DNA of 64,000 nt from Phyllosticta citribraziliensis. Its lineage: Eukaryota. The notes under the pieces are model-generated. The model saw nothing but the letters and a program-made list of their open reading frames with translations. It was not told the origin of the DNA and ran no database searches. Location: positions 186,001 through 250,000 of the forward strand of contig NW_027117348.1 in the NCBI RefSeq assembly GCF_038025025.1, given 5' to 3'. Both the position numbers and the translations under genes were made by a program. Numbering within the stretch: the stretch's first letter is position 1; each line of letters opens with the position of its first letter. Below are positions 1-30,545 of this stretch, piece after piece.

Positions 1-2
1 AA

Positions 3-3525: not shown

Positions 3526-4435
3526 TCAAACTACAAGCAAAGCAAAGAACCAGATTTGGCCATGTCCACTCGACGCGGGAATGATGCCGACGTGCAGAGG
3601 TCGGCCGTCGTCGTCGAGGAAGCCTTTCAAGAGTACTTCAGATGCCACGAAGTTGATGACGGTTGAAAGCCTTTTCAAAAGATTCACATGAGCGGGGATG
3701 AGTTTCTGGCTTTGAAGGTCAAGTGCAACCCGAAAATTTGTCACTCTACGCAGCACCGGGAAAAACTATGTGAGCTTTTGCCAAACCCCAGACTCAATGC
3801 AAGAGCTGACACCAGCCAGGACCATGGGCTACGTGGTGAACCAAGGCGGAATGCTCCCACACCACCGCACACACTTTCATCTCAACCGGACTGGCCATGT
3901 CGTAGACTGAGGTGCCAGATACGCACCAGGTGCAGCGCAAGAGTCAAGATTTAGACCGAGGGATTCCACCGCAATCGGGAGCTGGAGCATGTCACACCGA
4001 AGCGCAGATGCCCGTATCCGCCTAGAGACTTTGGAGGTTGCTCACAAATCCAGCCACGAGGGCACCGTCTTGAAGAGAATGTTGCGGGAGGACCTGAGGT
4101 GTCGCAGGTGTCGCAGCTGCACCATGTACTTTGCCATCAGCCTGGATGACGAGACGAAGCTCGTCTCGTGCACCATCATGGTCGGCTGGTGGTCGATACG
4201 GAGTCGCCCTCGCGATGACGACGTTCCCCGAACGCACGCGACGATACACACCAAGTTTCTTAGGAACGAGACCCGGTCCCTGGATCTGTTCGACAGCCCC
4301 CTCAGAACATTCTCGGCAGATAAGTTGTCGGCAGGGCATTTTGACGCAGACCAGAACTTGTCTCTGGGCTACCATCAATGGTGTTGTACAATCTGGATGG
4401 ACGGACGGCCGCAGAGGGTTCGATGACGTTGGCAT
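3526..4435 (-). pseudogene. Probable degraded gene next to the AT-rich island
   Basis: Protein-like segments occur in shifting frames (3526-3756, 4042-4254, 4022-4435 with CVKMPCRQLICREC) and are separated by stops. No consistent intron model found. Confidence 0.25.
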
Positions 4436-5530
4436 AAGGTTTAGCTATATAAGGAGTAACAATTGATATAAGTAAAGGCATAGAACTAGATGTAATATAT
4501 ATACGAAACTGATTATCTTTCTTTTTTTATAAAGTACAATTTAAACTATAACGAATAATTAAAACATTTATTAACCTAACTACATCAGATATAATAAAAT
4601 AATTAGTATAAATAGTTAAACTAAAGTCTCTAGTAGAACCGTCCCCTATAATAAGATGCGCTAAAGCTATTAGAGTTAAAAGTTTATAAATATTAGCTAG
4701 AATAGTTTTTAAAGTAGGACGGGCCCTATTAATATAGAATATAGAATAAAGTTTACTAATATAAGGTAAGGCTCTTATATAAAACTCTAATTCTAGAGTT
4801 TTAACTCTAGCTCTTTCCCCTTTAACTAAATAAGGTAAATGAGAATAATAATAAGCTAATATAGAAAATATAAATTATATATATTTAGACTTTTCTAAAT
4901 ACTATTTAAACTATAAACTTTTATTAATACTATAATTTATAGTTATAAAGCTACTATTAGATAAAAGAAGACCTATTATAATACTTATATAAAAAGGGGA
5001 TAATTTTATTATATTTCTCTCCTCTTTTATAAATATACTGCCTACTATGCTATATAGATTAGAACCTTAAATTACTAAGGCTAAATAAGTTAAATAGCCT
5101 AGGTTTTTAAATAAATAAAACTATCCTAATTCTATTTTAAATAGTATTCCTTTATTTATAATATAAAGTATATATTATATATTCTTCTTCTTTTTTAAGT
5201 TAGAATTAGAAATATTTATACACCTTATAGGTATTAATATATAGCAAGCCTTTATAATATTATTAAAAATATAAGCTATTATTTATTTATCTAGTTCCTT
5301 TTTTATTTTATTATTTCTAATAAAATAAAAAAGGAATAAAGTATAAAAAATAAATAATTTATTTAAAGGTAAAGTATGCTTATTTATACTAATATTAGAC
5401 CTAGTAGAATTAGATAATACTTTTATTTTAGATATTTTAACACTTATTAAATACTGATCTTTATATAATGTATTTAACCCGAATTTACTTTTAGATAAAA
5501 TATGATTATTAATAGATTTTACATCTACAT
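4430..5530. repeat. AT-rich island with RIP-like signature (mutated repeat relic; origin unidentified)
   Basis: There is an abrupt drop in GC relative to the flanks, a visible excess of TpA and scarcity of CpA/TpG, and many stop codons. Confidence 0.8.
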
Positions 5531-6093
5531 TAAGATCAGATGCAGCTTTACGTGGGACGGAACGGGACGCAACTACGAGTGCCACCTTCCCTATTTGTCT
5601 TTGCTGGACCAGGGTAAGTACGAGCATCCCCGCACACTACAAGCCCTCGATTTCTCCATCAACCACGGCGCCTGTTCTCTCGTATTTGCGACCAGGATCG
5701 GGAGTTCCGAGTGCACTGTCAGCATGGAAAGCAGCTTTTCTGACTCGACGGAAATGGCTAACAAGTTCCAGGAACACGGTCACGATTCACGAGCCGAACG
5801 CGATTCCCCAAATCTGGTTCATTCAGGTAGTGATCAATTGATTGTCTCAGTGTTGTGCAAGATCTGCACCCCATACGAGCCGCGTGAAACTGAAAAGCGG
5901 AGAAAGCGTTCGCGAGACCGGGGAGAGGGCCTGTTTCGGCGATACAGCCACCGGCGGTTATGCACGAAACACTGCACGGCTGCGAGGCGATCAGGCGAGA
6001 CCAGGGGTACCGCCAACACAAAAGGGGTGCCTTCGCTGCACTCTCGCTCCGACGGGCTGTCGAAAGCGCAAGTAACAAAAGACAGTGAACACC

Positions 6094-7520
6094 ATGCGGC
6101 AGTCTCTCGCGCTCACTGCAGCGCTCGCCGGCCTCGCACGAGCATCCCTGCAAATCATCCCTGGCGCAACATGGACCGTCCAAGACACAGGTGAACACCT
6201 GCAAGCGCACGGCGCTGGCGTCATCCAGGTTGACGGCACATTCTACATGATCGGCGAAGACAAGACCGACGGCTCCAACTTCCAAAACATCAACTGCTAC
6301 TCTTCGACGGACCTGGTGGAGTGGAGCTACGTGGGCGCGCTTTTGACGTTGCAGGACAGCGGCGATTTGGGACCAGACCGCGTTGTCGAGCGGCCCAAGG
6401 TCATCTACAATGATGACACGAGCACATATGTCATGTATTTGCATATCGATGACTCGAGCTACGCCGAAGCAAAGGTTGGCGTCGCGACTTCGTCGAGTGT
6501 CTGTGGGTCCTACGATTATCAGGGCAGTTTTCAGCCGCTGGACCATCAGAGCCGGGACATCAATTTGTTCAAGGACGACGATGGCACGGGGTACCTGTTG
6601 ACCGAGGATGTAAGCATCCTTTCGATACAACCCGATATGGGTTTTGCTAACAAAGCCAGCGCGAAAACGGACTACGCATCGAAAAGCTGAGCTCAGACTA
6701 TCTCAGCGTCGAGAACAACACGTACCTCTTCTCCAACAGCGACTTGGGCATCGAAGCATCCGCCTTACTCAGGATCGACTCGACCTACTACCTCTTCGGC
6801 TCGCAACTCACCGGCTGGGACCCCAACGACAACTACTACGCCACAGCCACATCGCTCTCCGGGCCGTGGTCCGACTGGGCCCTGTTCGCCGACTCAGGGA
6901 GCAACACGTACAGCTCGCAGACGAACTTTGTCCTGAAGATCGAAGGCAGCTCGAAGACGACGGCCATCTACCTGGGAGACCGGTGGCACAGCGACGCGCT
7001 CTTTTCGAGCACGTATGTGTGGCTGCCTTTGACCATCGACGGGACGTCCGTCAGCATGAAGAACCAAGTCAACTGGGTCATCGACACGGCGACAGGCGAG
7101 TGGAGCGCCGGGCCCAGCGAGACGGAGTACGAGGGCGAAGACGCAACGCTTTCCAACGACGCCTCGTCCGTGAGCTGTGATGGATGTTCGGGAGGCAACG
7201 CGGCGGGGTACATTGGCGGCGACTCTGCTCCGGGTGGCACGGCGACTTTTAGCAATGTCAGCAGCCAGGCCTCTACGACGACGACGATGAGGATCAAGTA
7301 CCAGAATTTGGATAGCACCGCGCGGTATGCGGCTGTGTCGGTGAACGGAAAGGAGGTCGGTACGCAGGTTGCTTTTCTCCCGACTACCCAGGGCACGCCG
7401 GGGACAAGTGTCGTTCATGTGAAGTTGGCCGAGGGAGATGCGAATGAGGTTGTGCTTGCCGGGGTTGAAGGGAAGGGATACGGCCCGGATGTTGACAGAT
7501 TGATGGTGCCAGTGTCGTGA
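6094..7520 (+). CDS. Secreted GH43 glycoside hydrolase (exo-beta-1,3-galactanase-like, GH43_24) with a C-terminal CBM35/CBM6-like module, ~458 aa
   Basis: Exons are 6094-6609 and 6660-7520 (GTAAGC..GCTAAC..CAG intron). It has signal peptide MRQSLALTAALAGLARA and motifs LQAHGAG, FYMIGE, VVERPKVIYN, SRDINLF, GWDPNDN, YSSQT and YLGDRW. The CBM begins YEGEDATL..C..CSGG.AAGYIGG. Confidence 0.9.
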
Positions 7521-7982
7521 GTTCTCCAAGGGAGGCTCAGCAGGATGCGAAGGAAATCGAGAAACTTGACGACTCTTCTCTCGCTCTACTTATCCGTCAC
7601 TCCCAAATTCCCATCCAGCTCGTCACGGTTGAACAAACAATGCTTCAGCCCCGCTCTTTGGACTTACTAACTCCTTATCTGGGGAGGCTTTAGTCGGCTT
7701 CGTCAAAGCAATACTGTTGAGTCTCGTCTTTCGACCCCTATCACTTCAGTAGCACTCAAACAAGAGCGTGTTACCTGTTCTTGGGAACATGGAACCAGAC
7801 GGAGCACAAAGTCTTTGTTTTCCAGTGTTGCTCTCAAAAGCCTATTGTCCAACTCCTTCCCGGAACTGGCTGCTTTGTTCAAATACAATCGACCACAATG
7901 GCGATTGTATAAGAGTCAAAAAGAAGACTTCTCGGATTTCAACAACAAACACCATCCGAAACACTTTCTGCCATCTTCCAAC

Positions 7983-8735
7983 ATGTTTTCCACCAGGCCT
8001 AGCAGTTTGCAGCATGAAAATGGTGCCGCAATTAACCTTGCGCGTGGCCGTGCCGCCGAATTTATCGACCGGCCGCTCGAGGAGGGTGAAGAACTCGATC
8101 GAGCTGCCATGGGCGCGATAGATGAAGATTTCGATGACGACGCAACTGAGTTGCAGTATGAAGACTCCGACGACGACGCAATTTACTACGACTATGACCA
8201 CTTCGGACCCTCAGACCCCCACGTCAGAAGCATGTCAGCGATGAAATTCATCAAACTGCTGTGGAAACGCATTGTAGAACTCCCAGGCCGCAGCACTTGG
8301 CCAGACCTGGTCCGCACACAGTGTCATGCTGTGTTCTTTCTAGTGGTAGCCAAGGGAGCCTGTGAACACGACGATCTAATTGCGAGTTGGTACAACCGCT
8401 GGTATAGAGACCTGGAGCATTACCGTAACAATATCGTCATCCAGGGCATCCCCGATCGCGATGTTAATATGCTAGAACTCGCCGACCGCATCTACTATGA
8501 CACTGTCCGCGAGGTGGATTCCTTATCGATGGAGGATGGCAATCCATTTTCCTCAGGGCGAGCGGTTCAGCTGCTGGAAGTTTATTCTCTGCTTTTCTCT
8601 GCTAGATTCCTCCGGAGGGTCGCTCGCATCGATCCTTCGCGCAATATGGCCTTTGCCGGGTTCCAAACTGCTGTCATGCGGAGAGCGGTCGATCTTGGTG
8701 GCGAACTTGCCGAACCTATCCTCCTCCAGATGTAG
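7983..8735 (+). CDS. Hypothetical protein (~250 aa) with an acidic N-terminal stretch
   Basis: Long ORF open from 7815, first ATG at 7983, with protein-like composition. No domain recognised. Confidence 0.5.
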   Translation: MFSTRPSSLQHENGAAINLARGRAAEFIDRPLEEGEELDRAAMGAIDEDFDDDATELQYEDSDDDAIYYDYDHFGPSDPHVRSMSAMKFIKLLWKRIVELPGRSTWPDLVRTQCHAVFFLVVAKGACEHDDLIASWYNRWYRDLEHYRNNIVIQGIPDRDVNMLELADRIYYDTVREVDSLSMEDGNPFSSGRAVQLLEVYSLLFSARFLRRVARIDPSRNMAFAGFQTAVMRRAVDLGGELAEPILLQM

Positions 8736-9196
8736 TGGTGAGCAAGAAAGCAGTCTGAAAGCGTTGTTCAGCTATAGCTCCAATCAAAAGATAGAAAATT
8801 TTCCACGTCCTTCCCTGTCCAGCGTGAAAGGTGCCCAGTTTGGTGAGCCCCCTTTGTCAGATATCGACTCCCCTCCCTAATTAGGTGCAGTACACATCTG
8901 CTTTATCCACTCACCTACTACTTACCTGCGCCTTGCGACGTTAGTTACATTATTGCCCCATTTAGCCGCGATGTATCGCCCACTGCCCACCCACCGCGTC
9001 GACCACCCACGTCCACTGACCCACGTCCACTGCATCGTCAGCCGCGTCAATACCAACCGAGACTGTGGGACAAGGTAGACTTGTATGGAAGCAACGCGAC
9101 ACACAAAATCATCAACAAATGTTCGATTTCTTGTCAACTCGTTCTCGTCCAAATCATTCTGACACCATCCAACCAGCTCCAACCCTATCTCCAGCC

Positions 9197-10654
9197 TCAA
9201 TACCGACACCGGCCGCAGTACCCACATGAATCCGACGAGCAAGCAGTGTAGTCGAGCTCCGACTGCTCCGACTCTCCGTCCGAGTCCGAAACAATGACAC
9301 CCCCGATGGGACTCGCCGGCGACGAGTAAAACTCCTCATCGCTGCCATCCTTCCCGGACGACGCCTCGCTGTGAGGTTTGCTGACCGCTGCGCCATCGAT
9401 CCACCACTCTTTCACATCCTCTGGCAACACCTCCACGGCATTGCTCGCCTGCCCCCGAATCTCCAACACATCCAACTCCTTGCGGCGGACCTCCAGCTTC
9501 TTGTCCGGGTGCGCCTTCGCCAGAGCCGAAATCTTGCGCAGGACCGCCGCCAACTGGGCCAGCTTGTCCTGGTGCTGGTCCTCGAAAGCGTCAAGATTCT
9601 TGCGCACGTCGTCGACACGGATGTCTTTGAACGTGCCCCATTCATGGAAGGCGAGAACAAAGTTGGGCGTTTGCGAGAGCCACAGCCGCTGGACCTCTTC
9701 GCCCAAGACGTCCTGGTCCATCCGCTTGACCGAGCGCGTCTTCAGGTCGAACACGGTGCCTTGTGCAATTTTTCGACCGCCCGTCACCACTTTCAAGCTC
9801 GTGCCGGTGTCGATGGTCAGATGCGGGTACTCGTCGTCACAGTCGTCGCCTTCGGGATCCAAGTTCTTCAAGTACCCGTCACTCTCGTACCGGACGACGC
9901 AGTTGAGCCCAGCAAAGTCGTACTGCACGATGCGCTGATGAGACTGGGAGCCCTTGGTAAGTCCTTCCCACGTCGTGTATGCCTCGGGAAAAGTATGACC
10001 GAACCCTCTGACGCCCTGAAGTGTTTCCGTGGGCGAGTTTTCGTGTCGCACGAAAAAGACGGTGTTGCCGACGACTTGTACAAGGAACCGAAAGGGCCGA
10101 TCAGACTTGCGGACGAAGCGGAGAAGGTTTCCCAGTGTGCTCCCACAGGCGAAAATGTCGACGTTACCAGACGCAAACTCGCGATTCATGGCAAATATCG
10201 CGCGCACCGATGGCTCCGTTGGATGCTTGGGGTAGCGTGCGGCGTTGGCGTCACGATAGTAGACGCCCGCGTCTTCTTGCAATTGTTTCGGTTCCTCGAG
10301 AGGTGTCCAGGCGGGTGGAGATCCTGAACTGTCAGTTTGAAAGAATATGCTAAGATTTGAAAACTTGCCTGGTATCATGATTGTTGGGCTTTCCCCTTTC
10401 TCAATCCAGTTGTACGACGAAATATATTGGCAATTGGTAATCTTGGCCAGGCTGCGCTCATCCGGCTTAGAGTCCAAGTCCAGCTCGATGGTGTTCAAGA
10501 TGGGTCCCACCGGCGGAGACGGTGGTCTCGATTGCTCCTGTGGCTTTTCCCTCCGCGAAGTGTTGCTGTATCCGGACCCACCTCGGCCCCTACCACGAGT
10601 ACGACCGTATGGACGCCCACGCAAGTTTCCACGCTGCAAAAACTGGTCAGTCAT
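9197..10654 (-). CDS. DXO/Rai1-like PD-(D/E)XK nuclease-fold protein (~470 aa) with an RG-rich N-terminus and C-terminal Cys cluster; resembles fungal proteins often labelled 'geranylgeranyl pyrophosphate synthetase'
   Basis: Exons are 10654-10369 and 10323-9197, with a 45-nt in-frame GC-AG intron. Motifs in order are VDIFACGSTLGNLL, GFGHTFPE, VRYESDG, FDLKT and RLWLSQTP. The N-terminus has RGRPYGRTRGRGRGG and the C-terminus is DYTACSSDSCGYCGRCRY. No DDxxD prenyltransferase motif pair is present. Confidence 0.7.
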   Translation of the reverse strand: MTDQFLQRGNLRGRPYGRTRGRGRGGSGYSNTSRREKPQEQSRPPSPPVGPILNTIELDLDSKPDERSLAKITNCQYISSYNWIEKGESPTIMIPGKFSNLSIFFQTDSSGSPPAWTPLEEPKQLQEDAGVYYRDANAARYPKHPTEPSVRAIFAMNREFASGNVDIFACGSTLGNLLRFVRKSDRPFRFLVQVVGNTVFFVRHENSPTETLQGVRGFGHTFPEAYTTWEGLTKGSQSHQRIVQYDFAGLNCVVRYESDGYLKNLDPEGDDCDDEYPHLTIDTGTSLKVVTGGRKIAQGTVFDLKTRSVKRMDQDVLGEEVQRLWLSQTPNFVLAFHEWGTFKDIRVDDVRKNLDAFEDQHQDKLAQLAAVLRKISALAKAHPDKKLEVRRKELDVLEIRGQASNAVEVLPEDVKEWWIDGAAVSKPHSEASSGKDGSDEEFYSSPASPIGGVIVSDSDGESEQSELDYTACSSDSCGYCGRCRY

Positions 10655-11390
10655 GGTCTGAAAGATACGCAGAGCTTCAGGAATCCCAGCAACTGGCACG
10701 TGTGGATCATATACAGCCCTGCAGATCAAGTGTTCGGCGCCCTGTGGAGCGGGGAGTAGCATGGTTTGACCCAGTTTGGTCTCACGTCCAAACACAAGCC
10801 TTTGTCACAAACGCTGCCACGACATCCATTCAGGCTCTCGGGCGGGAGTGGAAGTCCCCGTTCTGCAGGGATACTGGGGGCGGTGACGAAACTCTGATCA
10901 ATCATCTCCAATCGATAAGCAGTTTCAACAGTGGTCAAGGATCAGAACGTGCTTTGCTTTTCCGCGATTTGCTCCCCTCTGCAACTAAACTTTGGTGCAA
11001 CGCGAACGGCAATCGAACTTGCCACCGCATTTGCGGCAGTCCAAGCAAAGGCATGATCAATCATTGGGTGCCTGCGAAGAATTCGCACTCTTGGCCACAG
11101 CCAGAACGGCAAAAGAAGGTTCGAGGAGCAAGAAAAGCGCAGAACTATCCCGATGCCTCGAACGGAAACGCCAAAAATGGCTCATTGGAAGCAAACAAAC
11201 TCATACTCAAAGGCCGATGCGGAATTGCTCTCGAGCCCACCAGAGGGCTGGCAGGGTAATGAGTCACCTTGTCCTATCGCATCCTAAACTCCCTTGGGAT
11301 CTCCTCCCGTTCGCTTGAGTCCTCTTTTTGATGCACCATTCCATTCACAAACCACCTATATTTGATCCCAAAGAATTACCAAACTCAGCC
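10655..11390. promoter_or_regulatory. Probable bidirectional promoter between the divergent nuclease-like and helicase-AAA genes
   Basis: 736 bp separate the two divergent ATGs. TGATCAATCAT occurs at 10895 and 11054; GAACGG(C/A)AA occurs at 11004, 11104 and 11160. Confidence 0.5.
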
Positions 11391-14300
11391 ATGGCGGCTA
11401 CTCCTGACGCAAAAACAACACGTTCGTCGCGACTGGCAACCTTCTTTTACGCTGTTCTCGACGGCAAACGCGTGGTTTCGTCTGCTCGAGAGGGCCAGCT
11501 TTTCATCGACGCCATTTGCGAGAGACCCAACCGCAAGGATTGCGTTGAGCGTCTTGTGGCCAGCCAGCCTGCAGCAAACGCTCTGCGAGCCGGCGTGCGA
11601 TTCGACACTTCGATCAACTTCATCAACGGCCACTTGGAGCGACTTCTAGCCTATCTCCGGGACCCTTTGCTGAAACAGCTTTGTAGCGGCGAGATCTTAC
11701 GTCGCCTGTTGCTTCTCATCGTTGACCCGCCAACCCTTTGGAATGTCTTTGTCGGTACTCAGAAAGAAGGACAACTGACGCCTGAATCAGAGCACGCTTT
11801 CGCATGGCTTCTGCTGGAGCTTTTGTCCTGGAATTCCTCTCCACCCGTTAACGTGCTGCCAATTGCTGAGGAGATTGTCTCCCGCGAGGCGTTGTCGAAA
11901 GGCTCGAATCACGAAGTCCGTGCCCTCATCTACCGAGTCAAACAAGCATTTAACGCTAGACGTCACAATGTATTCATCCCGGACTGCACCCACGATGGGC
12001 CCGGCGGCAGGCATGACAATGATTTTGTCGATTTCCGCGAGATTGCCATATACCCTACAGAAGATGAGCTGGAAAGCAAGGACAAGCCCTATTACCAACG
12101 GGCCGACGCAATCGACGATACACCCAGTGACCAACGCGTGGCCATGCTGCTTGACAACCAGTTTAGACTGCTGCGGGAAGACATGCTTGCAGAGCTCCGC
12201 GACGATCTTAAGGCTTCCCGGGACAAGAAGGGCCGACGCAAGAACATGCGTCTCCGGGGCATCAAGCTGGCTGGATTGTACGTGGGCACTTCGAAGTGGA
12301 GTACTCCGTTCTGCCTGACGGTCACGTGTGAAGCTGGCTTGGAGAAGCTCACTGAAATGAAAGGGGTACAACGCAAGTCATTTCTTGAAAAAGAAAAACG
12401 GTTCCTCAAAAACAACAGTTTTGGTTGCCTGATGGAAAGCAATCGCGTCGTTGCCTTTGCAACTCTAGAAAGGGTTGAAGAGAAGTTGCTTGTGGATCCG
12501 CCCCAAGTCACGCTTCGCATTCCAGACTCGCGAGCGTTGGAGGCGGTGTTGACCAAGTTGAAAGACAGGAAGAGTGAGGTCGACTTTGTCGTTGTGGATA
12601 CTGCTATGTTCGCGTATGAGCCGTTTCTGGAGCGTCTGAAGCGCCAGGTCGAACTTCCCCTTGCGCAGGAGATTTTGGGCGTTGATGGAGACGGCCGCGG
12701 ACGAGTGATTGAGTCTCCGATTTGCCCATCCGCTACCGCCGATTCCATCAAGGAGTCAGATGGCAGGAATTTGCAAGACTTTCTTGCCTTGCCGAATGAA
12801 GTCAACCTGGACCCATTGCAGCTGGAGTCATTCATATCCGGTTTGCGACAGACTGTCAGCCTCATTCAAGGACCTCCGGGTAGGTAACATTCATTTTTCA
12901 CGTACGAAACTGGCTAATTGGAGCCCAGGCACCGGTAAATCCTTCATCGGTGCTCTGATTGCCAAGGCTTTCCAAAAGTACACGTCTCACAAAATTCACG
13001 TCATTTGTTGCACCAACCACGCCTTGGATCAGTTTTTGGAAGATATGATGAACGTCGGCATTCCCGACGACATCATGGTCCGACTTGGATCAAAGTCCAG
13101 CTCGAGGACGGAACATGTCAACCTGCACCACGTTGCACAAAGTAAGCAGGCAAGGCGTAGCCAAGCAACCTGGGCGTTGATAGACAAGCTTCGGGAAGAA
13201 GTCGAGGACTACGAGGACATTTTGCGAAGACTTTTGGCGTCATTCAAACACGCCACCGTTGGAATCGACGAACTCTTCAACTTTCTTGAATTTGAGGACG
13301 AGGACTTCTTCGAGGCTTTCCAAGTGCCTGAAGAAGACGATGGGTTCACCAGGATGGGAGGACAAGGAGACATAGTCACCAAAGACTACCTCTACGAGCG
13401 CTGGCGTCGGAACCTCAATCCAGGAGTCTACAAAGACCGCACTACCCACTCTGCGATTTGGAACCTTTCTGCGGGCGACCGAGGATCAAAAATTGAGCAG
13501 TGGACAAGGCAGATCACGCAGGAACAGCTCACTGCAATCATCCAAGCGGTGGATTCCTACAACGCGTCCCAATCGCAGTTGAAGAAGACGCTGGACGAAC
13601 AGAAAGCCGCGATTCTCCGTTCCAAGCGGATCATTGCATGCACAACAACGGGGGCTGCAATGTATACGGAGCTACTCCAAAATGCCTCTCCGGATATTAT
13701 TTTGGTAGAAGAGGCCGGAGAAATACTGGAATCACATGTTCTGACTGCCATGACCCCAGCGACAAAGCATTTGATTCTGATTGGAGACCACAAACAGCTA
13801 CGCCCGAAGGTCAACAATTTTGCGCTCACGGTCGAGCGAGGCGATGGATACGATCTGAACCGGTCGCTTTTTGAGCGCCTTATTTTGGCTGGCTTCCCTC
13901 ACACCACGCTCAGCAGCCAGCACCGTATGCACCCCGAAATCTCGAAACTAGTCCGTCATTTGACTTATCCAAACCTGCGCGACGCACCGCGCACAAGCAA
14001 CCGACCCCCTCTGCGTGGCCTTCAAGACCGCGTCATATTCCTGAACCACAGCCATCTGGAAGACTCTGAGAATCGGACTGGGGAACGTCGCGAAGAAGGC
14101 TCCAGCGTTAGCAAGAAGAACGACTACGAGGCCGACATGGTGCTGCGGATTGTGCGATATCTGGGCCAGCAAGGATACGGGACAGGGGAGCAGGTCGTAT
14201 TGACGCCATATCTCGGCCAGTTGGCGTTACTGCGCGACAAGCTGAGCCAGGAGAATGACCCAGTGTTGAACGACCTAGACAGTTTCGACCTGGTCAAGGC

Positions 14301-17300
14301 GGGTCTGATTGCGCGTGAGACTGGGGCACACAGCAGGAGGAAGATCAAGCTCTCAACGATCGGTATGGTATTGGAAAGCTTTCGATGGCAAGGGCTGACG
14401 ATGCGACAGATAACTACCAGGGCGAGGAGAGCGACGTTGTAATTGTCTCTATGACGCGAGCAAACTCTAATGGAGACATTGGATTCATGAAGTCTCCCGA
14501 ACGCGTGAACGTGCTTCTATCGCGCGCAAGAAATGGACTTATCATCATTGGCAACTCGAAGACCTTTCTGAGCAGTAAGCAAGGCAAAGAAACTTGGGCC
14601 CCGCTCCTTGATTTCATGAGCAAAAAGGGGCACGTCTATGAAGGACTTCCGGTGAAGTGCGAGCAGCATCCTGACAAGAAGATGGTTTTGAAGAACAAGA
14701 AAGACTTTGCCAAACTTTGCCCTGACGGTGGATGCGAGCAGCCTTGGTAAGTCACCGCAACCGTCCTCCGCGCTGTGCCCCTCACTGATTAGAATCCAGC
14801 GGTGCAAAGCTCAGCTGCGGCGTCCACGAGTGCCCACAACGTTGCCACCAAATATCTGACCACTCGAAGATGGATTGCGAAAAGATGATGTCAGACACAT
14901 GCCCACAGAAGCACAGAATGACCTGGCGCTGCCAAAACGGCAGGCCCACAGCATGCAAGCAGTGCGACTTTGAGGCGAAGGAAATGGAGAGAAAGGTTGA
15001 GCGCGACTTGGAACTGGATATAAGGCGCCAAGAGCAGCAAAGACTTTATTCGTTGCAGCTGGTTGAGCTGCAGAATGAACTCGACTACCAGCGCCGGCTG
15101 CGTCGCGAGCAGGCGGAGGAGGCGGAGCATCAAAAGGTTCTGCAGCAGCATAAGGAGGACTTGGAGGATTTGAAGAGAGTTGGTACACGGACTGTTCCCA
15201 ACGGGCAGAACTCACACCTGAACGGAAGTGCGACGCAGATAGCAAGTCCGCCTCCAGCGGCTGCAAGTTCTCCTGGCAATGGGACCCTCAGCGAGCAAAC
15301 ATCCTCGGGACAAACGCCTGGGAGCTACCCTGCTGCGACCCCTGCAGATGAGACTGGGAGTGAATCCCCAAACAGAGATGACAAACGGCGAGGCAGTCAG
15401 CAACATCAAGGCCCGGGGAAAGGTGAGTGGCAAATGACATGTTCAGCAGCCAAGGACGAGTGGAAGTACCAAAAGCAGTACGAACGAGCGTCCAACCCCG
15501 CCCTCGACCAGTTGATGGACATGATTGGCCTCGAAAACCTGAAAGAAGAGTTCCTTGCCATCAAGACAAAGATTGATACCGCAGTCCGCCAAGGCGTGGC
15601 GATGAACAAGGAGCGCTTCGGCACAGCGCTGCTGGGGAACCCAGGGACAGGCAAGCCAGTCCCGAGCCATTCTGTCGTGGGACTTCACTGACAACCGAAC
15701 AGGAAAAACGACAGTCGCACGAATCTACGCCAAGTTCCTCTGCTCCGTCGGCGCACTGCCCGGGAACTACTTTGTCGAGTCTAGCGGGTCCGACCTCGCC
15801 AACGACGGCGTTTCCGGCTGCAAGAAGAAGCTTGAAGACATCCTGAACAACGGTGGCGGCGCCCTCTTCATCGACGAGGCATACCAGCTGGCCTCTGGCA
15901 GCAGCGCCGGCGGCAAAAACGTGCTCGACTTCCTGCTCGCCGAAGTCGAGAACCTCACCGGCAAAGTCGTCTTCATCCTGGCTGGGTACAACAAGCAGAT
16001 GGAAGCTTTCTTTGCGCACAACCCAGGCATTCCTAGTAGATTTCCTCGGCAGCTGCAGTTCAGGGATTACAAAGATGAGGAGCTGCTAGAGATTCTGATC
16101 TATGGCATCAACAAGAGATGGAACGGGAGGATGCAAGTGGAGCTTGGTGTTAGGGGACTGTATGGTCGCATCGCAGCCCGTCGGATTGGACGCGGAAGAG
16201 ATCGCGAAGGATTCGGGAATGCTCGCCAGGTTGAGAACGTTCTCACTCAGATCTCTGACCGCCAGGCCAAGAGACTTCGTCGTCAGCGCAGGGCAGGCCA
16301 AGCACCGGACGACCTGCTGCTTACCAAGGAAGACATGCTGGGTCCTGAGCCAGCGGACGCTCTCAAAGACAATGCTTCGTGGAGCAAGCTACAGACCCTG
16401 ATTGGACTAGGCTCGGTCAAGGATTCGGTCAAGTCCCTTCTCGACAGCATTCAGTACAACTACACGCGCGAGCTCGACGAAGAGCCCTTGATCGAGTTCA
16501 GCCTGAACAAGGTCTTCTTGGGGAACCCAGGCACGGGGAAGACAACAGTTGCCAAGCTGTACGGCCAGATCCTCGCTGACATTGGCTTCCTCTCCAGCGG
16601 CGAGGTGGTGGTCAAGACGCCAGCAGACTTCGTCGGCAGCGTCCTCGGCGGCTCCGAAGCAAATACCAAAGGCATACTTGCAGCCACCCTGGGCAAAGTC
16701 CTCGTCATTGACGAAGCGTACGGTCTGTACGGCGGCAAAGGTAACAGCTCTGGTGACCCGTACAAGACCGCCGTCATCGACACCATCGTCGCCGAAGTGC
16801 AGAGCGTCCCGGGCGACGACCGCTGCGTGCTCCTCCTGGGCTACCGTGAGCAGATGGAGGAAATGTTCCAAAACGTCAATCCCGGCCTGACGCGCCGGTT
16901 CCCGCTCGACTCGGCCTTTTCCTTTGACGACTTCTCCGACGACGAGCTGGCGGCCATCTTCGCCCTGAAGCTCAAACAGCAGGGCTTCAAAGCGACGGAC
17001 ACAGCTAAGAAGGTCGCCCTAGACATTCTGTCGCGGGTCCGCAATCGTCCGCACTTTGGCAATGCAGGAGAGATTGACATTTTGCTCAACGACGCCAAAA
17101 TGCGGCATCAGAAGCGCATATCCAAGGGCAAAGGCTTCATCACGGCGACTTTTGAGGCGGAGGACTTTGATTCCGATTTCGACAGAGGCGAGCGCGCGAA
17201 TACGAATGTGCTGAAGCTGTTTGAGGGCGTTGTGGGATGCGACGGTGTCATTGCACAGCTGCAGGGATACCAGCGGACAGTTGCAAATATGCGCGAGCTG

Positions 17301-18730
17301 GACATGGATCCGCGCGAACAAATCCCCTTTGCTTTTCTCTTTCGCGGTCCTCCTGGTATGTGGCTTCTCCACTGAACGAACGAAAGCAAGCTGACGGCAG
17401 CACAGGTACAGGTAAAACGTCCACAGCCCGCCGAATGGGAAATGTCTACTACGACATGGGCTTCCTATCCACAGACGAAGTGAAAGAGGTCTCGGCCACT
17501 GAGCTCATCGGCCAGTATATCGGCCACACGGGTCCCAAAGTACAAGCGCTCTTCACCAACGCCCTGGGCAAAGTGTTGTTCATCGACGAAGCATACCGTC
17601 TCGGCGAAGGCCACTTTGCCAAGGAAGCCATCGACGAGATCGTCGACTGTCTTACCAAGCCACAGTTTGCGCAGAAGCTGGTCGTCATCCTGGCGGGATA
17701 CACGCAGGACATCAACCGGCTCATGGCAGTGAATCCGGGACTGACGTCGCGCTTCCCGGAGACGGTGTGTTTTGAGTCTATGACGCCGGAGGAATCATTG
17801 GAGCTGCTCACGCAATGCCTGAAGAAGAAGAAGGGGCTGGATCTGACTGTGCTGGATCCGCCGAACGGCGCATTCCGCGCCCAGGTATTGCAGCTGTTCA
17901 CCACGTTGCGCGGCTTGCCGAACTGGGCCAGTGCAAGAGATGTTCAGACTATTGGCAAGGCTGTGTACGGGAACATCATGAAGTCTGGCAAACCGTCCAA
18001 ACAAGCTCGGCGCGTGACTGAAGCCGACATTGTCGTGGAGATGGAGAAGATGGTGAAGGAACGGACATCGAGAGGACAACACGCGCACGCTGTCCATGCT
18101 CCGCAGCAGCTACAGCCAACCATAAGCCTCGACCGCTCCTGTGATCCTCCGCCGGCAGTAAACACTTCTACCACGTCTGCGGTTGAGTCTGCGGTTGACA
18201 GCAATAAGGGCGAAACGAAGCCAGAAGACCCACCAGTCGACGAGGCGCCATCCGACACCACTGCCAGCGACAAGAGAGACGCCGGCGTAAGCGACGCCGT
18301 GTGGAACCAATTGCAAGAAGACGCACGCAAAGCAGAAGCCGCTGAGCACGAGTTCCAAGCCACAGCCGAAAAGGAGAGAGAACTCGAAAAGCAGCACGAG
18401 GCCGCCAACAAGGAGTCAAAAGAAGCCAACGAAAATGAGAAGCACACCGATAGCAGCGACAACGACGACGCCATCAAACGCGAGCGCGAAAGACGGCGTC
18501 TGCAAAAGATTCAGGAGCAGCGACGGCGAGAGGCCGAGATGGCTGAGATCCGGCGAAAGAAGGCGGAGCTGGAGAGACAACGCGAGAAGGAGGCGAAAGA
18601 GAGGAAGGCACTGCAGCAGATGGGCGTTTGTTGTGCGGGCTTCCGGTGGATCAAGCAGGCGGGTGGGTATAGGTGTGCAGGTGGTTCGCATTACGTGTCG
18701 GATGCGCAGATTCATGCCCATTTGCATTGA
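11391..18730 (+). CDS. ZNFX1-like (NFX1-type zinc finger) SF1 RNA helicase fused to three CbbX/SpoVK-family AAA+ domains, ~2362 aa
   Basis: Exons are 11391-12879, 12929-14362, 14410-14746, 14800-15650, 15703-17355 and 17406-18730 (7089 nt, frame-consistent). ZNFX1-type motif: GGRHDNDFVDFREIAIYPT. SF1 motifs: QGPPGTGKS, VEEAGE, LIGDHKQLRP, SLFERL, QHRMHPEI, LTPYLGQ, STIDNYQGEE, RVNVLLSRAR. NF-X1 finger: CGAKLSCGVHECPQRCH. Three AAA modules of pattern G(N/P)PGTGKT..(F/V)IDEAY..(A/L)GY..NPG...RF. Confidence 0.9.
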
Positions 18731-19270
18731 TTGGGTACGGAGATGTAGTGTGGTCCTGGGGATAGAGGGACTCACGTCGCAAGAATGGCGAGGGCTACAT
18801 CAATATCGAACCAGCCTTGCAGATATCAAGATATCCTGAAGCGCAAGTCATATCAGAGTCGACATACCCGACCCGTACGCAAGAGTTGGCGAAGATTGAC
18901 GGAGCCGCATCGATTACACAGAAAACGGTCGAACGCATCTTGGAAGGACACCTCATATTTATCCCGGTAAAGTACGCCGCTGCCGCAATTTTGAAGCTTC
19001 TCTCCTCCAAAGGCAACCCTTCTGTGTCTGTGATATTGTACATGTTTTCAAAACCTCCCTTAAATTCCCATTCCCCCATCATCAACTTCGTTTACTGCAC
19101 GCGGAGATTTACATAGTTGTACGCAGCCCGGCGTCCTGGGAGACGCTGTGGTAGATCCAAGAGGAACAACCTTTCCGCATCTGCATGGGCTCCAGCTCCT
19201 TCGTCTGTGGATGAATTAGCATAGTGCCCAACATCATCTTCATTTGCCAGAGGAATACCTACGTCATCTC

Positions 19271-20543
19271 TTAGGCGGGCCCTTCAGTCGACGGCGACCA
19301 TATCAAATGGTTGTCTGAAAGGAGGAAAAGCTCCGCAGAATACCGGCCAAATACGTAGTTCTCCCCATCATCCTGCGCGGTCGCCATCCACGACAGTTCT
19401 GCTTTATGAGCGCTGTGACGGTTGGCTCTTTTGGCACACGTCAGGATGATGGCGTCGAGGTTCGTCATGATATTGAGGAAGTGCACAGCACAGAGCGTGG
19501 CCTTCTCCCTGTCCTTGAGACATATCCAGGCCCTTGTCGGGATGTGGCTGCTGGATGTGACGACAATGTGGAGCGTTTTGACGTTGGGGAAGCTGTCTCG
19601 CAATTCGTATGCCACCTACAGCAGGGATTAGATTTGAAACAGCGCAAATGTTCATGGCAGACGTACGAGAGGCATCAGCCTGGAGTCTCTGAAAGAGCAC
19701 TTCAGCGTGAGATGGGTCACTTGTGGAAGTGGAACTGTATGTCCCAATAACCCGAAGCAGCTGGTCTCCAACTCCAGATACCTGAGTCGAGCGAGGGACT
19801 GAACCTTTTGGAGTATCCAGACCAGATCGCGAGGCTGTCCTCCGTGCGCAGTGTAGACGCCGAGCGTTGGATCGTTGATGTCTTGGGGGAAGACTTCATA
19901 CTCGACGGCAGCAAGTGAGACGACGTTCTCACAGTGCACCAGAAGGAAGTTCGACGCGTGGTTGACGACGAGCTCTCGGACGTGGGAAAGGCGGAGACCT
20001 CCAGCGCTCGTCGTGAGATGCGCCAATTCGGCGGCGTGTCTGCTGTCAGGGACAATCACGACGAGCTTCCGCAAACGACTGGCCACAGAGGCGACGTGGC
20101 TCAGTGTGGTCGCTGCTCCATGGAAAGCGTGCAGTGAGCGAGCAACCCAGTCGTTGAAGGACGTCGCTGTGGAGTTGTCCAAAGCAAACGACCTTTTCAT
20201 TTGTCAGCGGCAGTCATATACTCGTAAAAATGTCCCTGGCTTACCGGAGATTCTTCAGCATGCTCGGCAACTGGGAGTTCAAGTCCGCGTGGTGGTCAGC
20301 AACATCTTTCAGCTTTCCGTGCCAGCCAAAGTCTCCAAAGTGGAGCTTGACTGCCCGGAACAAAAGCGTCAAGCAGGCGTTGTTGAGAACCTTGTTGACG
20401 CGCGAAAGGCTGACGAGATCGCTGGCACCTGCTTTGCTTCCGACTGGAGAGTCCTTTCCGACCAAGTGGACGACCTTCAGCAAGACTTCTATTGGGAGCC
20501 TGTCGAGGCTAAGACCTGTAGCTTGTGCCGTGGTGAAAGGCAT
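19271..20543 (-). CDS. F-box-like array member 1 (~389 aa)
   Basis: Exons are 20543-20245, 20192-19667 and 19615-19271. It has LDRLPIEVLLKVV..LVSLSRVNKVLNNACLTLLFR and ends WSPSTEGPA. Confidence 0.75.
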
Positions 20544-20933
20544 TGTAGGCAGCTGGAGGGAAAGAATTGGCGCTGAGCTGCTGGGTGGAACTGAAAGGTT
20601 GAAGGGGGGCAGATATACTGTTATTGTTCTGCTTCGGGGTACCACATCAGCGCGGCGCTGTGGTGGTCAACAGTGCACGTGGTTGGCGATGACGGTCCGC
20701 GCTCGATGGCACGGCCAAGCCACTGCTTTACAAAATGAAGGCCAAAAGATGGTTGTGTCATATTTTGGACTGCAAAGAAAGCCTTAGTGTTAAAAATCCG
20801 ACTGGAACCTTCCCCCCTCCAAGCCAGCAAGCACGGCCTTTTTGCGGATTTCCGCAATCGAATTTGTCAATTCGACATACGGTAGTTCTCCATTGACGTT
20901 GCCAAAGTAAATTCACAAGTATGAGGAGGTCGT

Positions 20934-21350
20934 TCATGTGGCATCAAAGGTGATGGATTTCAGCACACAATATACGCGACAAGAGAGCAAAAAGACTGTG
21001 TCGCAGTCTTTGATTGCGCAGACAGGGTCAAAGGCCGCAACCATTGCAGATAAGCGCTTTGGATTCGATACCACCGAGTGTAGTCTTCCCATTGAAGCAG
21101 AAACTGCGCACACTGCCGTGGTCAGGGACATGATGTAATTACTTGATCCCGACTCAGGTGGTCCTTCATTCTCGTGTGACCATTCTTTGCGTACCCCACG
21201 TATCGCAGCGGAGAACCCAGCGGCTTGTCCATAGTGGCAGGTTCCAAGCCATGTGAATTGTCTTTAAACAATCGCTCCCATACCAGTCCTTCAAAGTTCC
21301 AACTCTGAGCGGGCTTGGAGGCAGAGAACCAAATATACCACGTAATCTTT
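20934..21350 (-). pseudogene. Frameshifted relic with a GIY-YIG-like YVG..N...R...H motif
   Basis: PLRYVGYAKNGHTRMKDHLS continues after a frameshift near 21150 as GSSNYIMSLTTAVC. Confidence 0.3.
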
Positions 21351-21360
21351 TCCCCTTGCA

Positions 21361-22806
21361 TCACGCTGGGCCTTCAGAAGCAGGAGTCCATTCCTTGTAT
21401 CGAACACTCCCCAGCGTGAGACCATCAAGTGACTGCAGCTGCGAGTTCTACTTTTCGCCGGCAGGTCGCGTTGCTTTCCAATACGAGTTGAAGCGGGGCT
21501 CGTTGACACGTCCACGATTGTAGAACATGCACGCGATACCAAACTCCTCCAATCGTGGATGAAATCTGAAGAACCCCCTGGCCCAATGCGAGACGATAGC
21601 CTCTTGTTGGAATAGCATTGGTGCTGGAGACGCGTGGCTGAAGCGTCCAGTCACAACTAGGGTGAGCGACTTGATTTGCGGCATTTTGGTGGTCAGTTCG
21701 AGTCTGATCTGCAAAAGGTCAGCCTCCATTTTCGATGTGGGACTGTGGGTTGGCTCTCTCTCTTACACTCCAAAGATGCGTTAGGCCGAAGCGAGGAAGC
21801 TCGCCGACCAACACCAAGCGCTGAAGGTTATCCATTCTTGGAAACGCTCCCCACATATCGTCGAATGCGCAATCTATTTCCAGGCTCCGAAGGTGCTTCT
21901 TACTGGCGACACGTTCGAGGTATTCCATGAAACCATTTGGTTGCGGGTTGAGTGTTGAAAAGCCGACAAGTGTCAGGGAGGTGATGTTCGGGCACCAGTC
22001 CAGAAGAAAATGCGCACATTTGTCGACAACCAAATCTTTTACGAATGGAAGCTCAGGGGCGCCTTCAGAGTCCGCTGTAACGACAAGTTGCCGGAAATTC
22101 CTAAAACCAGGGGCCAGAGTGACGGTGAGCTGTTCCAGCTTTCTTGACGTGCGGAGGACCCGAAGCAGAATTAATCCTGCCCTGTTGATCTTCAGGAGAC
22201 TGGGCGTCCGGGGTCTGTTGTGCCGTCCTTCGCGCGCCTTCAGGGCAAAGGACCTCGAAAGCGGTTAGGAAGTGGAGTATTCAATCGGAGTGATGGGTCA
22301 AACCTGATGCTTCGGAAATCATCCGGCGTCTCGTGCATCGTCATGTCGGGAGGGAAAAGGCCGGCATATTTCCCTGGCTGATACAGGTCGGTGAAGTCGA
22401 CAACTACGGCACGGAATAGCTGTCTCCGGCACAACTCCCTCATTTTGTAGCTGGTCCGAGAGAGGTTGACCAGGGAGCTTTCTTCCGTTCGATGGACTGG
22501 AGACATGGCTCCGACCCAGCCGACGATCTCCAAAATCATCTCTCCAGGAAGCGTCGCGAGGGTCTTTATGGTTTTCCGCCCGGTGGGGATCTTGGCGGGA
22601 GCAGAGAGAGCGCGGCGGCGAGACGTGTCGCGGTCAGGCATCGGAAGGCCAGATTGGAGAGATGACTGGAGCGAGAGCGAGCGGCGTTGAGTGTGAAGAA
22701 CCGGAAGGTCAACTCTCGAAGGACGAGGGAACAGTTGGTCGGTCCGGGAGGAGGCGATGGGAGCGGCGTCTTGAAGGCTCGTGCGGCGGCCAAAGACGAA
22801 AGGCAT
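21361..22806 (-). pseudogene. F-box-like array member 2 with a premature in-frame TAG (truncated allele or pseudogene)
   Basis: Exons are 22806-22304, 22253-21767 and 21708-21361. It has LATLPGEMILEIVGWVG..LVNLSRTS. TAG at 21448-21450 is followed in frame by NSQLQSLDGLTLGSVRYKEWTPASEGPA*. Confidence 0.75.
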
Positions 22807-23189
22807 CTCTTCGATGCTGGAAAAGCTCGACACTGTGATGGAAAGGTCAGCAATGGGTTTTTGCTGTCAAGCTGGCCTCGGCGTCGGCGAAGACTCACTG
22901 AAGTTGAAGGCGAGAAAGAGAGATTTATAGACGAGCCGGTATTCAGCAAGATCGCAGAGTGGGCGAGGACGCTGAGGAATGTAAAGTCCAGAGGGCTGTG
23001 AAAGGAGCAAAGTGCAGAAGGAGGTACTGTTTCTTGGTCGTTGAAAAGCGACAGAGGTTGTTGGACGCCCACCGTTGGGAACAGTGCACGTGATGTGTTG
23101 AAACAATCGGTGCACTGGCGACTCTGCGCCCGCAAAGCAGCGCCATGCCAAATTCGGATCGCTCTCACTCAGTAGTGACAGGCTGCAAT

Positions 23190-23385
23190 TAAGATCGCGG
23201 GTTTCGAAGCGTGAGCTAACGTCTTTTTTCATGGCGTTGACACCCACCATCGAAGGGTGGAAGTACAGCAAATCGTCGACGTAGATGACCAGATATCCAG
23301 CGTGCGGAGTCTTGAAAACGCAAGGATCGGCTTCCAAGGTGGTGTATCCTAGCGAAATCATGTATTCAGTGAACTCCTTTCAACC
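23190..23385 (-). mobile_element. Ty1/copia reverse transcriptase fragment
   Basis: The translation *KEFTEYMISLGYTTLEADPCVF..YLVIYVDDLLY..KKDVSSRFETRDL has the copia RT features D.CVF, YVDD and F...DL. No LTRs or other pol domains are visible. Confidence 0.8.
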
Positions 23386-23495
23386 TTGCGCAGTTGCAAT
23401 TATGTACTTCTTTGATAGGAAGGTCTTTGATAACAGCGACCGGTCGCGAGACTGGGAGAGATTTAATCCTTGATAGACCAGCACTTGGAACAGGC
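23386..23495 (-). pseudogene. Short duplicated fragment of F-box-array exon 3
   Basis: LNLSQSRDRSLLSKTFLSKKYIIATAQ matches member 3 (DRSLASKTFFSKKYIIATAQ) and the neighbouring fragment (LKISQSQDRSLASKTFRAKMYTTGTAQ). Confidence 0.75.
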
Positions 23496-23588
23496 TATTT
23501 AAAAAAACCATGTGCATATGGATCTCCGACCGTAATGCCTGAATGAGAAATATACATTATCGTCCTAATCTTCCCACTCGGCCGGTGA

Positions 23589-23930
23589 CTACACTGGCCT
23601 CTCATGGCTTTGCCTCTACGTCTTCCAGCCGAACACGACCAAGTCGAGGGTATCTGGCGAACTGAGTTGCAGCCGCCTGGTCCGATATCTATTGCCTGGA
23701 TGATACCCTGGCGGTCTGCTGGGCTTCCAAAATGACGAGAGACGCGGCTCATAGATCAAGCCGTCAGGGTGGGCAATACAGGCCAGACTAAACTCCGTAA
23801 GTCTGGCATGGTTGATGAAGAAGCTCTGAGCCGTGCCTGTAGTATACATCTTTGCCCTAAAGGTCTTCGACGCCAAAGACCGGTCTTGAGACTGAGAAAT
23901 CTTTAATCTTGAAAAGACCAGCGTTGTGGA
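23589..23930 (-). pseudogene. Orphan copy of F-box-array exon 3, closest to member 3
   Basis: Translation is DRSLASKTF..EFSLACIAHPDGLIYEPRLSSFWKPSRPPG..RTRRLQL..GWKT*RQSHERPV*. The internal stop replaces the conserved Trp, and exons 1-2 are absent. Confidence 0.75.
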
Positions 23931-24023
23931 GAAGCTATTTGACAAAAATACATATGAATGTCCAATTGAACTGCCTGGATCAGAATATACAACGTCTGCC
24001 CAACCTTCCAGCCCGGCCTATGG

Positions 24024-30175: not shown

Positions 30176-30545
30176 GTTGGCACTGCTCGAGTTCGCTGCT
30201 GCGGAAGAGGCTCGTTGTGGGAAGGGAAGTTGATCGGGGGAGGAAAGCTTGTTGCGAAAGTGAGGTATCGAGAATAAAGGCTACCGTAAGGGAGATTGGG
30301 GGTTCGAGCGACTTTTATAAGTAGGGCTGTGATGGATGGCAAGGGTTGAAGACTGGGTGCTATCGGACCCTCAGGCGAAACTTTAATTCAACCATGTGCG
30401 CGCAGAACCGCGAACCACACTTTGACTGAGCACTGGACCAAAAATGAACCCCCCCAACGGTCAAAACCTCAATAGAAAATTCGCATGATCAATACGCGAG
30501 TTGAGATCCTTGTGAAGTATCCTTTAGATCTGAACCATGGTTCTG

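Follow-up and report, generated by a model that had tools for sequence, protein, structure and literature searches.

Do two genes that stand head to head in a fungal genome, one for a nuclease-like protein and one for a giant helicase, encode the parts of a single system acting on RNA? The question is raised by a 64,000-nucleotide stretch of Phyllosticta citribraziliensis DNA (contig NW_027117348.1, positions 186,001 to 250,000), called the window below and numbered from its first letter. Gene A occupies the minus strand from 9197 to 10654, gene B the plus strand from 11391 to 18730, and their divergent start codons are separated by 736 bp (10655-11390), as read from the sequence and as given in an earlier reading of the same DNA, here called the original prediction. 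That prediction described A as a DXO/Rai1-like nuclease and B as a ZNFX1-like helicase carrying AAA+ modules, and proposed that they form a defence module acting on viral or aberrant RNA. In our reading, A and B are a two-gene module conserved across Pezizomycotina, and diverge from one short shared promoter region.

Conservation of the divergent pair

The names of the best 120 matches listed for A and for B, a sample rather than a census, were compared. Consecutive A and B locus tags of the same assembly were found in at least 11 species among the matches listed: Diplodia seriata, Sarea resinae, Recurvomyces mirabilis, Teloschistes hypoglaucus, Trichoglossum hirsutum, three Arthrobotrys species, Orbilia ellipsospora, Dactylellina haptotyla and Plenodomus lindquistii. 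In a Teratosphaeriaceae species the tags are two apart; in Geoglossum umbratile, whose assembly is fragmented, A and B fall on two separate small contigs, and this case is uninformative. At least 12 further species apparently carry both genes on one contig, as judged from equal contig size, among them Glonium stellatum (12.2 kb) and Colletotrichum somersetense (17.3 kb). The consecutive-tag pairs span at least five classes (Dothideomycetes, Orbiliomycetes, Geoglossomycetes, Lecanoromycetes and Sareomycetes), or six if Sordariomycetes, represented by the 17.3-kb C. somersetense contig only, is counted.

Metagenome contigs were scanned with a profile of the A family (A1, built from 34 homologues), and B was sought in the resulting 80 loci by tblastn with its protein, P0121. 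B was found in 54 of the 80 loci, always upstream of A, on the opposite strand and with its N-terminus nearest A; it is near full length in 32. Where at least 1 kb of sequence is available upstream of A, B is present in 52 of 59 loci, and where at least 2 kb is available (the informative set) in 41 of 46. The distances between the two ATGs in the 54 loci, which are rough estimates, range between 276 and 887 bp with a median of about 480, and the non-redundant A-B intergenic regions number 37. As a control, 81 open reading frames (ORFs) from either side of the pair (window positions 1-9150 and 18750-32000) were compared with the same material, and none of them matched any of the 80 loci (E <= 1e-8). 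General synteny has decayed, while the A-B pair has been retained. Head-to-head linkage in other fungi, which the original prediction proposed to look for, is conserved on three independent lines, the names, the metagenome contigs and the control; the patchy presence and absence expected of many defence systems was not seen in the loci examined, where the pair looks widespread and strongly conserved.

Some loci depart from the common arrangement. Upstream of A, a reverse-transcriptase ORF (RVT_1, 7.4e-19) is found at the B-less locus L078:3535-4995, and an ORF with a HET domain (7.6e-26) at the B-less locus L072:348-992, so that two of the five B-less copies have a neighbour of mobile or incompatibility type. 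Descent of the unlinked A copies from one ancient paralogue clade was considered and is not supported, their nearest relatives being linked copies (50-74% identity); they look, from these sequences, like scattered relocations or duplicates. One contig (L020:3-236) shows, besides a normal head-to-head B, a short plus-strand match to the AAA region of B (residues 1409-1486) at the very end of the contig; either a rearrangement or a fault of the assembly could account for it.

The intergenic regions share some short words. CAAGGCTG is found, on either strand, in 15 of 28 A-B intergenic regions, compared to 1 of 28 equal-length 3' flanks (loci L003-L076); in about 10 loci the word appears as CTCAGCCTTG, approximately 100-190 nucleotides before the estimated start of A. 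The words GCAAACA and GCCTGCA are also enriched in the intergenic regions of these loci. The 736 bp of the window contain no AAGGCTG, the 7-mer core of the CAAGGCTG word, on either strand. A composite element of the window, formed by a forkhead-like word beside CCAAT, was discarded as a conserved signal: its best matches in 37 other loci were barely above those in shuffled sequences.

Gene models and protein families

The gene models were compared with contigs from three sequencing runs (X1-X3), which are guessed to derive from RNA. X1 contigs, at least 99% alike to the window, contain an exon-exon joint at the 45-nucleotide intron of A, and X3, from a relative 90-95% alike, contains exon-exon joints at four B introns. 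Spliced transcripts of both genes are thus present in these runs. The features are as follows.

9197-10323, minus strand: gene A exon 2, stop included; most of the DXO/Rai1-fold core, acidic disordered linker, C-terminal four-Cys motif
10324-10368, minus strand: gene A intron, 45 nucleotides, GC..AG; supported by P0001 and an X1 contig
10369-10654, minus strand: gene A exon 1; ATG, RG-rich disordered N-terminus (residues 1-34 with pLDDT, the predicted local distance difference test score, <50), start of the folded core
10655-11390, between the genes: shared 736-bp region between the start codons; bidirectional promoter and 5' untranslated regions; X1 contig over 10758-10989
11391-12879, plus strand: gene B exon 1; ARM-like domain ~11451-11978, ZNFX1-type pre-helicase domain ~12024-12683, start of the superfamily 1 (SF1) helicase
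12929-14746, plus strand: gene B exons 2-3, with an intron at 14363-14409; SF1 core ~12819-14624, start of the NFX1-type fingers; intron joints in X3 contigs
14800-15650, plus strand: gene B exon 4 region; NFX1 fingers to ~14944, coiled-coil/low-complexity linker, AAA+ module 1 up to Walker A GNPGTG
15396-15449, plus strand: gene B putative intron, 54 nucleotides, annotated in the database model
15651-15702, plus strand: gene B intron, 52 nucleotides, GC..AG; joint in an X3 contig; restores GNPGTGKTTVARIY
15703-17355, plus strand: gene B exon; rest of AAA+ module 1, module 2 ~16452-16934, AAA lid ~16998-17168
17406-18730, plus strand: gene B last exon; AAA+ module 3 to ~17812, charged low-complexity region, Cys/His motif ~18617-18697, stop 18728-18730

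Both genes have their best database matches in Phyllosticta citribraziliensis, which belongs to the Dothideomycetes. Gene A starts at 10654-10652 (MTDQ...) and stops at 9197-9199. The read-through ORF from this ATG encodes 485 residues; P0001, the corresponding protein in the database, is 470 residues long and otherwise the same, the missing 15 residues corresponding to the in-frame intron at 10324-10368. This intron is skipped in one X1 contig, and the tblastn alignment of P0001 agrees with it. The original prediction gave the distance between the two ATGs correctly and did not mention the intron. Gene B starts at 11391 (MAATPD...) and, when the window is chained to P0121 (2341 residues), is composed of seven exons. 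The P0121 intron at 15584-15644 destroys the Walker A motif of AAA+ module 1, while an alternative intron at 15651-15702 restores GNPGTGKTTVARIY, which is present in 13 of the 13 homologues printed. Sequence, reading frames and the spliced joint in an X3 contig support the latter intron. The first residues of module 3 are encoded at the end of the exon that precedes 17406. GC..AG introns occur in both genes, as the only intron of A and as the 15651-15702 intron of B.

The model predicted by AlphaFold for A has a pLDDT of 77.7, with a confident core (residues 50-410) and disordered ends, including a low-confidence tail of 59 residues. Its best Foldseek match is Arabidopsis DXO1 (6dkn, E 1.9e-13), followed by Rai1 proteins, mouse DXO and Dxo1. 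Identity to these enzymes is 9-15% in the structural alignments, and they score about 9 Z units above eIF3d. A RAI1-bearing cluster was retrieved for A at 0.89 from the ESM Atlas, which is used as a lead only. The predicted structure thus supports A as a divergent DXO/Rai1-fold protein. Its relatives amount to 867 at E <= 1e-3 among 8,000 candidates scored, and to 2,978 cluster representatives by profile search. The family has no Pfam model, and its members are mostly labelled 'geranylgeranyl pyrophosphate synthetase', a mislabel which nothing that we found supports.

Conservation was counted in an alignment of 261 relatives, with the residue numbering of P0001. Six motifs are defined in the Rai1 description by Wang et al. 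2015 (PMC4513879), where they are also assigned to secondary-structure elements: I, Arg; II, G-Phi-X-Phi-E; III, EhD; IV, EhK; V, KX4-Phi-hQ; VI, GhR. The most conserved positions of A are D244 (258/261), K290 (258/260), D/E288 (255/260) and Q313 (255/261), followed by E/D209 (242/260) and E242 (218/261). In the model, a strand ends with E242-x-D244 and the long strand after it carries D/E288-L-K290; Q313 closes the helix that comes next, and another helix begins with G204-H-x-F-P-E209. In order and secondary-structure elements these catalytic-type residues appear to match Rai1 motifs II-V, with D/E288-L-K290 as motif IV; R119 (224 of 236 relatives) is a candidate for motif I.

Outside these positions, Cys155 in the core is near-invariant (256/258). 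Each Cys of the C-terminal C-x4-C-x2-C-x2-C (window 9200-9240) is kept in 201-206 of the 210-223 relatives covering its column. The N-terminus is RG-rich, a tail whose composition is of RNA-binding type. The PD-(D/E)XK-type motifs (E-x-D, D-x-K, Q), RG-rich N-terminus and C-terminal Cys cluster that the original prediction had noted are therefore all present, and conserved in relatives. Its assignment of A to DXO/Rai1-like proteins is borne out by the fold and by the catalytic-type residues, but not by Pfam or sequence-profile matches.

Gene B has Pfam matches to AAA_11 and AAA_12 (SF1 helicase), PF00004 and AAA_lid_6. Of the proteins with a solved structure, human ZNFX1 matches it best by far (9q9z, E 2.6e-81); Upf1/Nam7 and Aquarius lie between 1e-25 and 1e-30, with Upf1 at about 1e-30. 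An N-terminal ARM domain, a pre-helicase domain with an invariant GGRHDND motif and a UPF1-like SF1 core with ZNFX1-specific flanking regions were recognized; Pfam gave no match on the N-terminus. ZNFX1 aligns to residues 212-574 and 659-1132 of B, and the latter stretch covers the Cys/His residues of the first ZNFX1 NFX1-type fingers; on this alignment the N-terminal 1,130 residues of B are taken as colinear with ZNFX1. The Cys/His residues at about 1055-1132 are conserved in 35 homologues, and only the first fingers have a ZNFX1 counterpart; the Pfam zinc-finger model does not match the region even at E <= 10. Against PADLOC profiles, the helicase matches that of MkoA, the helicase of Mokosh, at 9.4e-78.

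The fingers are followed by a coiled, low-complexity linker and by three AAA+ modules, each with Walker A and Walker B. Each of the three modules retains GTGKT as Walker A and IDEAY as Walker B across the 35 homologues; in module 1 of the window Walker A is present only with the 15651-15702 intron. Pfam scores are 5e-38 for PF00004 and 3.1e-17 for PF17866 (AAA_lid_6). Among Protein Data Bank (PDB) sequences, residues 1581-1823 match CbbX (3zuh/3syk) at about 2e-30 and the AAA+ region matches EccA1 at 6.8e-25, so that by sequence the modules are classed with CbbX/SpoVK-type AAA+ ATPases. The AAA region shows 65-76% identity in the full-length homologues listed from other families or classes. 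The description of B as a ZNFX1-like SF1 helicase with an NF-X1 finger and three AAA+ modules is supported by Pfam for the helicase and the AAA+ part, by the PDB match, whose alignment covers the first fingers, and by the Walker motifs.

The C-terminus of B carries the motif C-x2-G-x2-W-x5-G-Y-R-C-x-G-G-S-H (~18617-18697), conserved across the 35 homologues. Neither this motif nor the C-terminal Cys motif of A matches Pfam. No E3 ligase module (RZ finger, Z-ring) was found among the 25 of 29 Pfam families of P0121 that were listed, nor in the last 80 residues of B by Pfam and PDB; a diverged E3 motif in the C-terminal Cys/His patch is possible. These 80 residues gave only coiled-coil chance matches among PDB sequences.

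Some observations concern the surroundings of the pair. In X1 and X2, which come from different studies, 65 nucleotides at 9956-10020 are skipped; the borders are GT..AG with a GTAAGT donor on the plus strand, antisense to A, and lie within the most conserved coding block of A. X1 also skips 9121-9176, again a plus-strand GT..AG. These joints suggest a spliced antisense transcript across A (9120-10021, plus strand), possibly by read-through from a plus-strand gene with strong contig coverage whose end lies near 9.1 kb. The antisense joint is combined with the sense intron joint of A in one X1 contig, which may be an assembly chimera. Very high X1 contig depth is found at 8800-9140 (681; 1251 at the joint 8841-8890), in the plus-strand gene just past the 3' end of A, whose ORFs have no Pfam match. 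The GC content of the window, elsewhere about 0.53-0.58, is 0.36 at 4001-6000 and 0.68 at 42001-44000.

Possible joint function and its alternatives

The folds, the motifs, the conserved linkage and the spliced transcripts are observed, while catalysis by A, its joint action with B and the target RNA are inferred. We favour, at slightly better than an even chance, a joint action of the two presumably co-expressed proteins on RNA, with A as the nuclease and B as the motor. Helicases with a UPF1-like SF1 core move 5' to 3' on RNA. Through such a core, B would bind a target RNA, as a single strand, and translocate along it in this direction, while its AAA+ modules would use ATP to strip or remodel RNA-bound proteins; a B dimer would bring together six modules, enough for one ring. 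A would act at the 5' end of the same RNA, removing an abnormal cap or triphosphate and/or degrading the chain 5' to 3'. The ZNFX1 study in PMC13710534 describes binding to single-stranded RNA, unwinding of RNA and RNA-bound dimers, and DXO/Rai1 enzymes are described as combining aberrant 5'-end removal and 5' to 3' degradation in a single active site (PMC4513879). We incline to a constitutive role of the pair in the surveillance of 5' ends that are aberrant or foreign, which fits the broad distribution and the strong conservation of the B AAA region at least as well as defence does.

Several results weigh against joint action of this kind. Pfam RAI1 (PF08652) does not match A, either as a 521-residue ORF at E <= 0.01 or as P0001 at E <= 1, and a search of PDB sequences with the A1 profile (E <= 10) brought up no protein of the DXO/Rai1 type. 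The DXO fold alone does not make a nuclease, as eIF3d has this fold and is a non-nuclease. The Rai1 motifs were mapped on A by sequence pattern and predicted secondary structure, not by residue-level superposition, and the match is imperfect: motif II (G204-H-x-F-P-E209) is one residue longer than G-Phi-X-Phi-E, E242 of motif III (E242-x-D244) is replaced in 43 of 261 relatives, motif V keeps Q313 with no Lys at the expected spacing, and motif VI is not recognizable in the alignment. As for the linkage, five of the 46 informative loci have an A homologue without B and with unrelated genes upstream, and A can therefore persist unlinked to B. No A-B fusion protein was found: four longer A matches lack the helicase, and the best 150 of the 2,978 profile matches are 311-798 residues long, none longer. 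(These four, examined as candidate fusions, were rejected; they resemble merged models of neighbouring genes, labelled P450, 2EXR and '3'-5' exonuclease'.) The contigs of X1-X3 carry no information on level, strand or co-regulation, and a physical association or a common substrate of A and B is so far a hypothesis. Complex prediction with A and one B fragment, its N-terminal 485 residues, scored 0.00 in two runs in which alignments were unused, and is evidence neither way.

The alternatives differ in how much of this they explain. Within the favoured reading is nested the possibility of a dedicated innate defence, a eukaryotic analogue of the helicase-plus-nuclease anti-phage systems, in which B would sense viral, transposon or double-stranded RNA and A would be the effector destroying uncapped or foreign RNA. 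We regard this as possible but doubtful. It draws on the colinearity of B with ZNFX1, described as an interferon-stimulated antiviral helicase (PMC13710534), on the MkoA match of B, on the presence of ZNFX1 among the human MkoA matches in the preprint by Cury et al. (bioRxiv 10.1101/2022.12.12.520048) and on the report that incompletely capped RNA is attacked by DXO-type enzymes (PMC4513879). The pair looks widespread and strongly conserved, with near-invariant catalytic positions in A, rather than patchy or fast-evolving; moreover, A matches no PADLOC family, and our literature search found no link of ZNFX1-like genes to mycoviruses. A wider version appears equally doubtful, namely a lineage-wide RNA-immunity or 5'-end-surveillance machine of filamentous ascomycetes. 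In it a ZNFX1 homologue would carry three CbbX-type AAA+ modules in place of the RNA-ubiquitin-ligase effector arm of animal ZNFX1, two chains making a six-module ring, and a dedicated DXO-like nuclease, encoded by a gene of its own, would destroy captured mycovirus, transposon or mis-capped RNAs. By extension, cooperation with 5'-end nucleases might be general among sensors of the ZNFX1 type.

The imperfect motifs V and VI and the variable E242 could also mean that A is a non-catalytic adaptor, which would bind 5' ends or caps and recruit B, in the manner of eIF3d or of Arabidopsis DXO1, a function of which is described as independent of enzymatic activity (PMC6511851). This is unlikely: each of D244, D/E288, K290 and Q313 is retained by 255 or more of some 260 relatives, a constancy that would be difficult to account for if A neither catalysed a reaction nor bound metal, and the DXO/Rai1 enzymes are well above eIF3d in the structural comparison. 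CbbX is known to pull on the C-terminal tail of the Rubisco large subunit. By analogy, A could be a client or regulated substrate of the AAA+ ring of B, engaged by its disordered acidic tail and terminal Cys motif and thereby activated or recycled; the proximity of the B modules to CbbX and the conserved Cys motif on the low-confidence tail of A are in keeping with this. The proposal is still less likely than an adaptor, being pure analogy and leaving unexplained why both the helicase and the nuclease-type active site are conserved. Least likely of all is that the two genes share a promoter and nothing else, their adjacency being kept by overlapping regulatory DNA with no common pathway. The evidence is indeed one of co-location, and the unlinked A copies and the lack of fusions agree with such a view, but five or more classes preserve the head-to-head arrangement, whereas none of the 81 flanking ORFs is shared, and both products are RNA-enzyme types known to pair elsewhere.

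Relation to known systems

A literature search, with subscription-only papers and preprint supplements outside it, brought up no account of a ZNFX1-AAA+ architecture in fungi, of the fold of the A family or of the A-B linkage, in line with the original prediction, which knew of no functional account of such a fungal pair. The sole fungal mention found was that of MGG_11779 of Magnaporthe, at most a candidate orthologue, in a differential-expression table of PMC11091397. Animal ZNFX1 is intensely studied as an antiviral RNA helicase and RNA-ubiquitin ligase, whereas its fungal counterparts are uncharacterized. In Pezizomycotina the output end of the ZNFX1-type protein is a different one, made of three AAA+ modules, and its genomic partner, from a DXO-fold family of about 3,000 cluster representatives, has been its neighbour since the classes diverged. 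The analysis yields a corrected annotation for this large family, a testable hypothesis which links a helicase sensor to a 5'-end nuclease, and tractable model organisms for asking what ZNFX1-type helicases do to RNA, such as Podospora anserina, whose A homologue is PODANS_3_10420.

Among known proteins, A is closest in fold to the DXO/Rai1 family (DXO/Dom3Z, fungal Rai1, yeast Dxo1 and plant DXO1). It differs from it by the lack of a Pfam RAI1 or profile match, by the low identity (9-15%), by the extra residue in motif II, the missing Lys of motif V and the unrecognizable motif VI, and it has, in addition, an RG-rich N-terminus and a motif of four Cys at its end. The partner of Rai1 is the exonuclease Rat1, according to PDB titles, while the conserved genomic partner of A is a ZNFX1-type helicase. 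With animal ZNFX1, B shares, colinearly, the ARM domain, the ZNFX1-specific pre-helicase region, the UPF1-like SF1 core and the first NFX1 fingers. The human protein is described with twelve fingers (PMC13710534) and, in two preprints, with a C-terminal E3 module composed of RZ and Z-ring (bioRxiv 10.1101/2025.09.05.674436 and 10.1101/2025.10.14.682297); B aligns to the first fingers only; beyond them it has instead three AAA+ modules of CbbX type, and its small C-terminal Cys/His motif is of another kind. These modules and their lid (PF17866) are most similar to CbbX (the red-type Rubisco activase), SpoVK and EccA, from which B differs in that the module is present three times in tandem, in a chain that also contains a helicase.

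The prokaryotic system closest to the pair is Mokosh, likewise a two-gene unit of a UPF1-like RNA helicase (MkoA) and a nuclease-type protein (MkoB, a PLD nuclease), with MOV10L1 and PLD6 as its animal analogue in the preprint by Cury et al. (bioRxiv 10.1101/2022.12.12.520048). The analogy to prokaryotic helicase-nuclease systems, drawn in the original prediction, is sustained on the side of B by the MkoA profile, but not on the side of A, which has a DXO/Rai1 fold rather than the PLD fold of MkoB and no PADLOC profile match. The fungal pair also adds ARM, zinc-finger and AAA+ parts, and is eukaryotic, intron-containing and divergently transcribed. The arrangement is comparable, in addition, to Rat1-Rai1 and to machines that combine a helicase with a PD-(D/E)XK nuclease, such as Dna2. 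Rat1-Rai1, however, works with the exonuclease Rat1, and the substrate of Dna2 and AddAB/AdnAB is DNA. A single chain unites the parts in Dna2 and in AddAB, whereas the fungal pair consists of two genes and its helicase is of ZNFX1 type. RNA-surveillance pairs of a helicase and a 5'-end nuclease are a known kind, to which A and B would add a fusion that is unusual and a two-gene arrangement unusually well conserved for eukaryotes.

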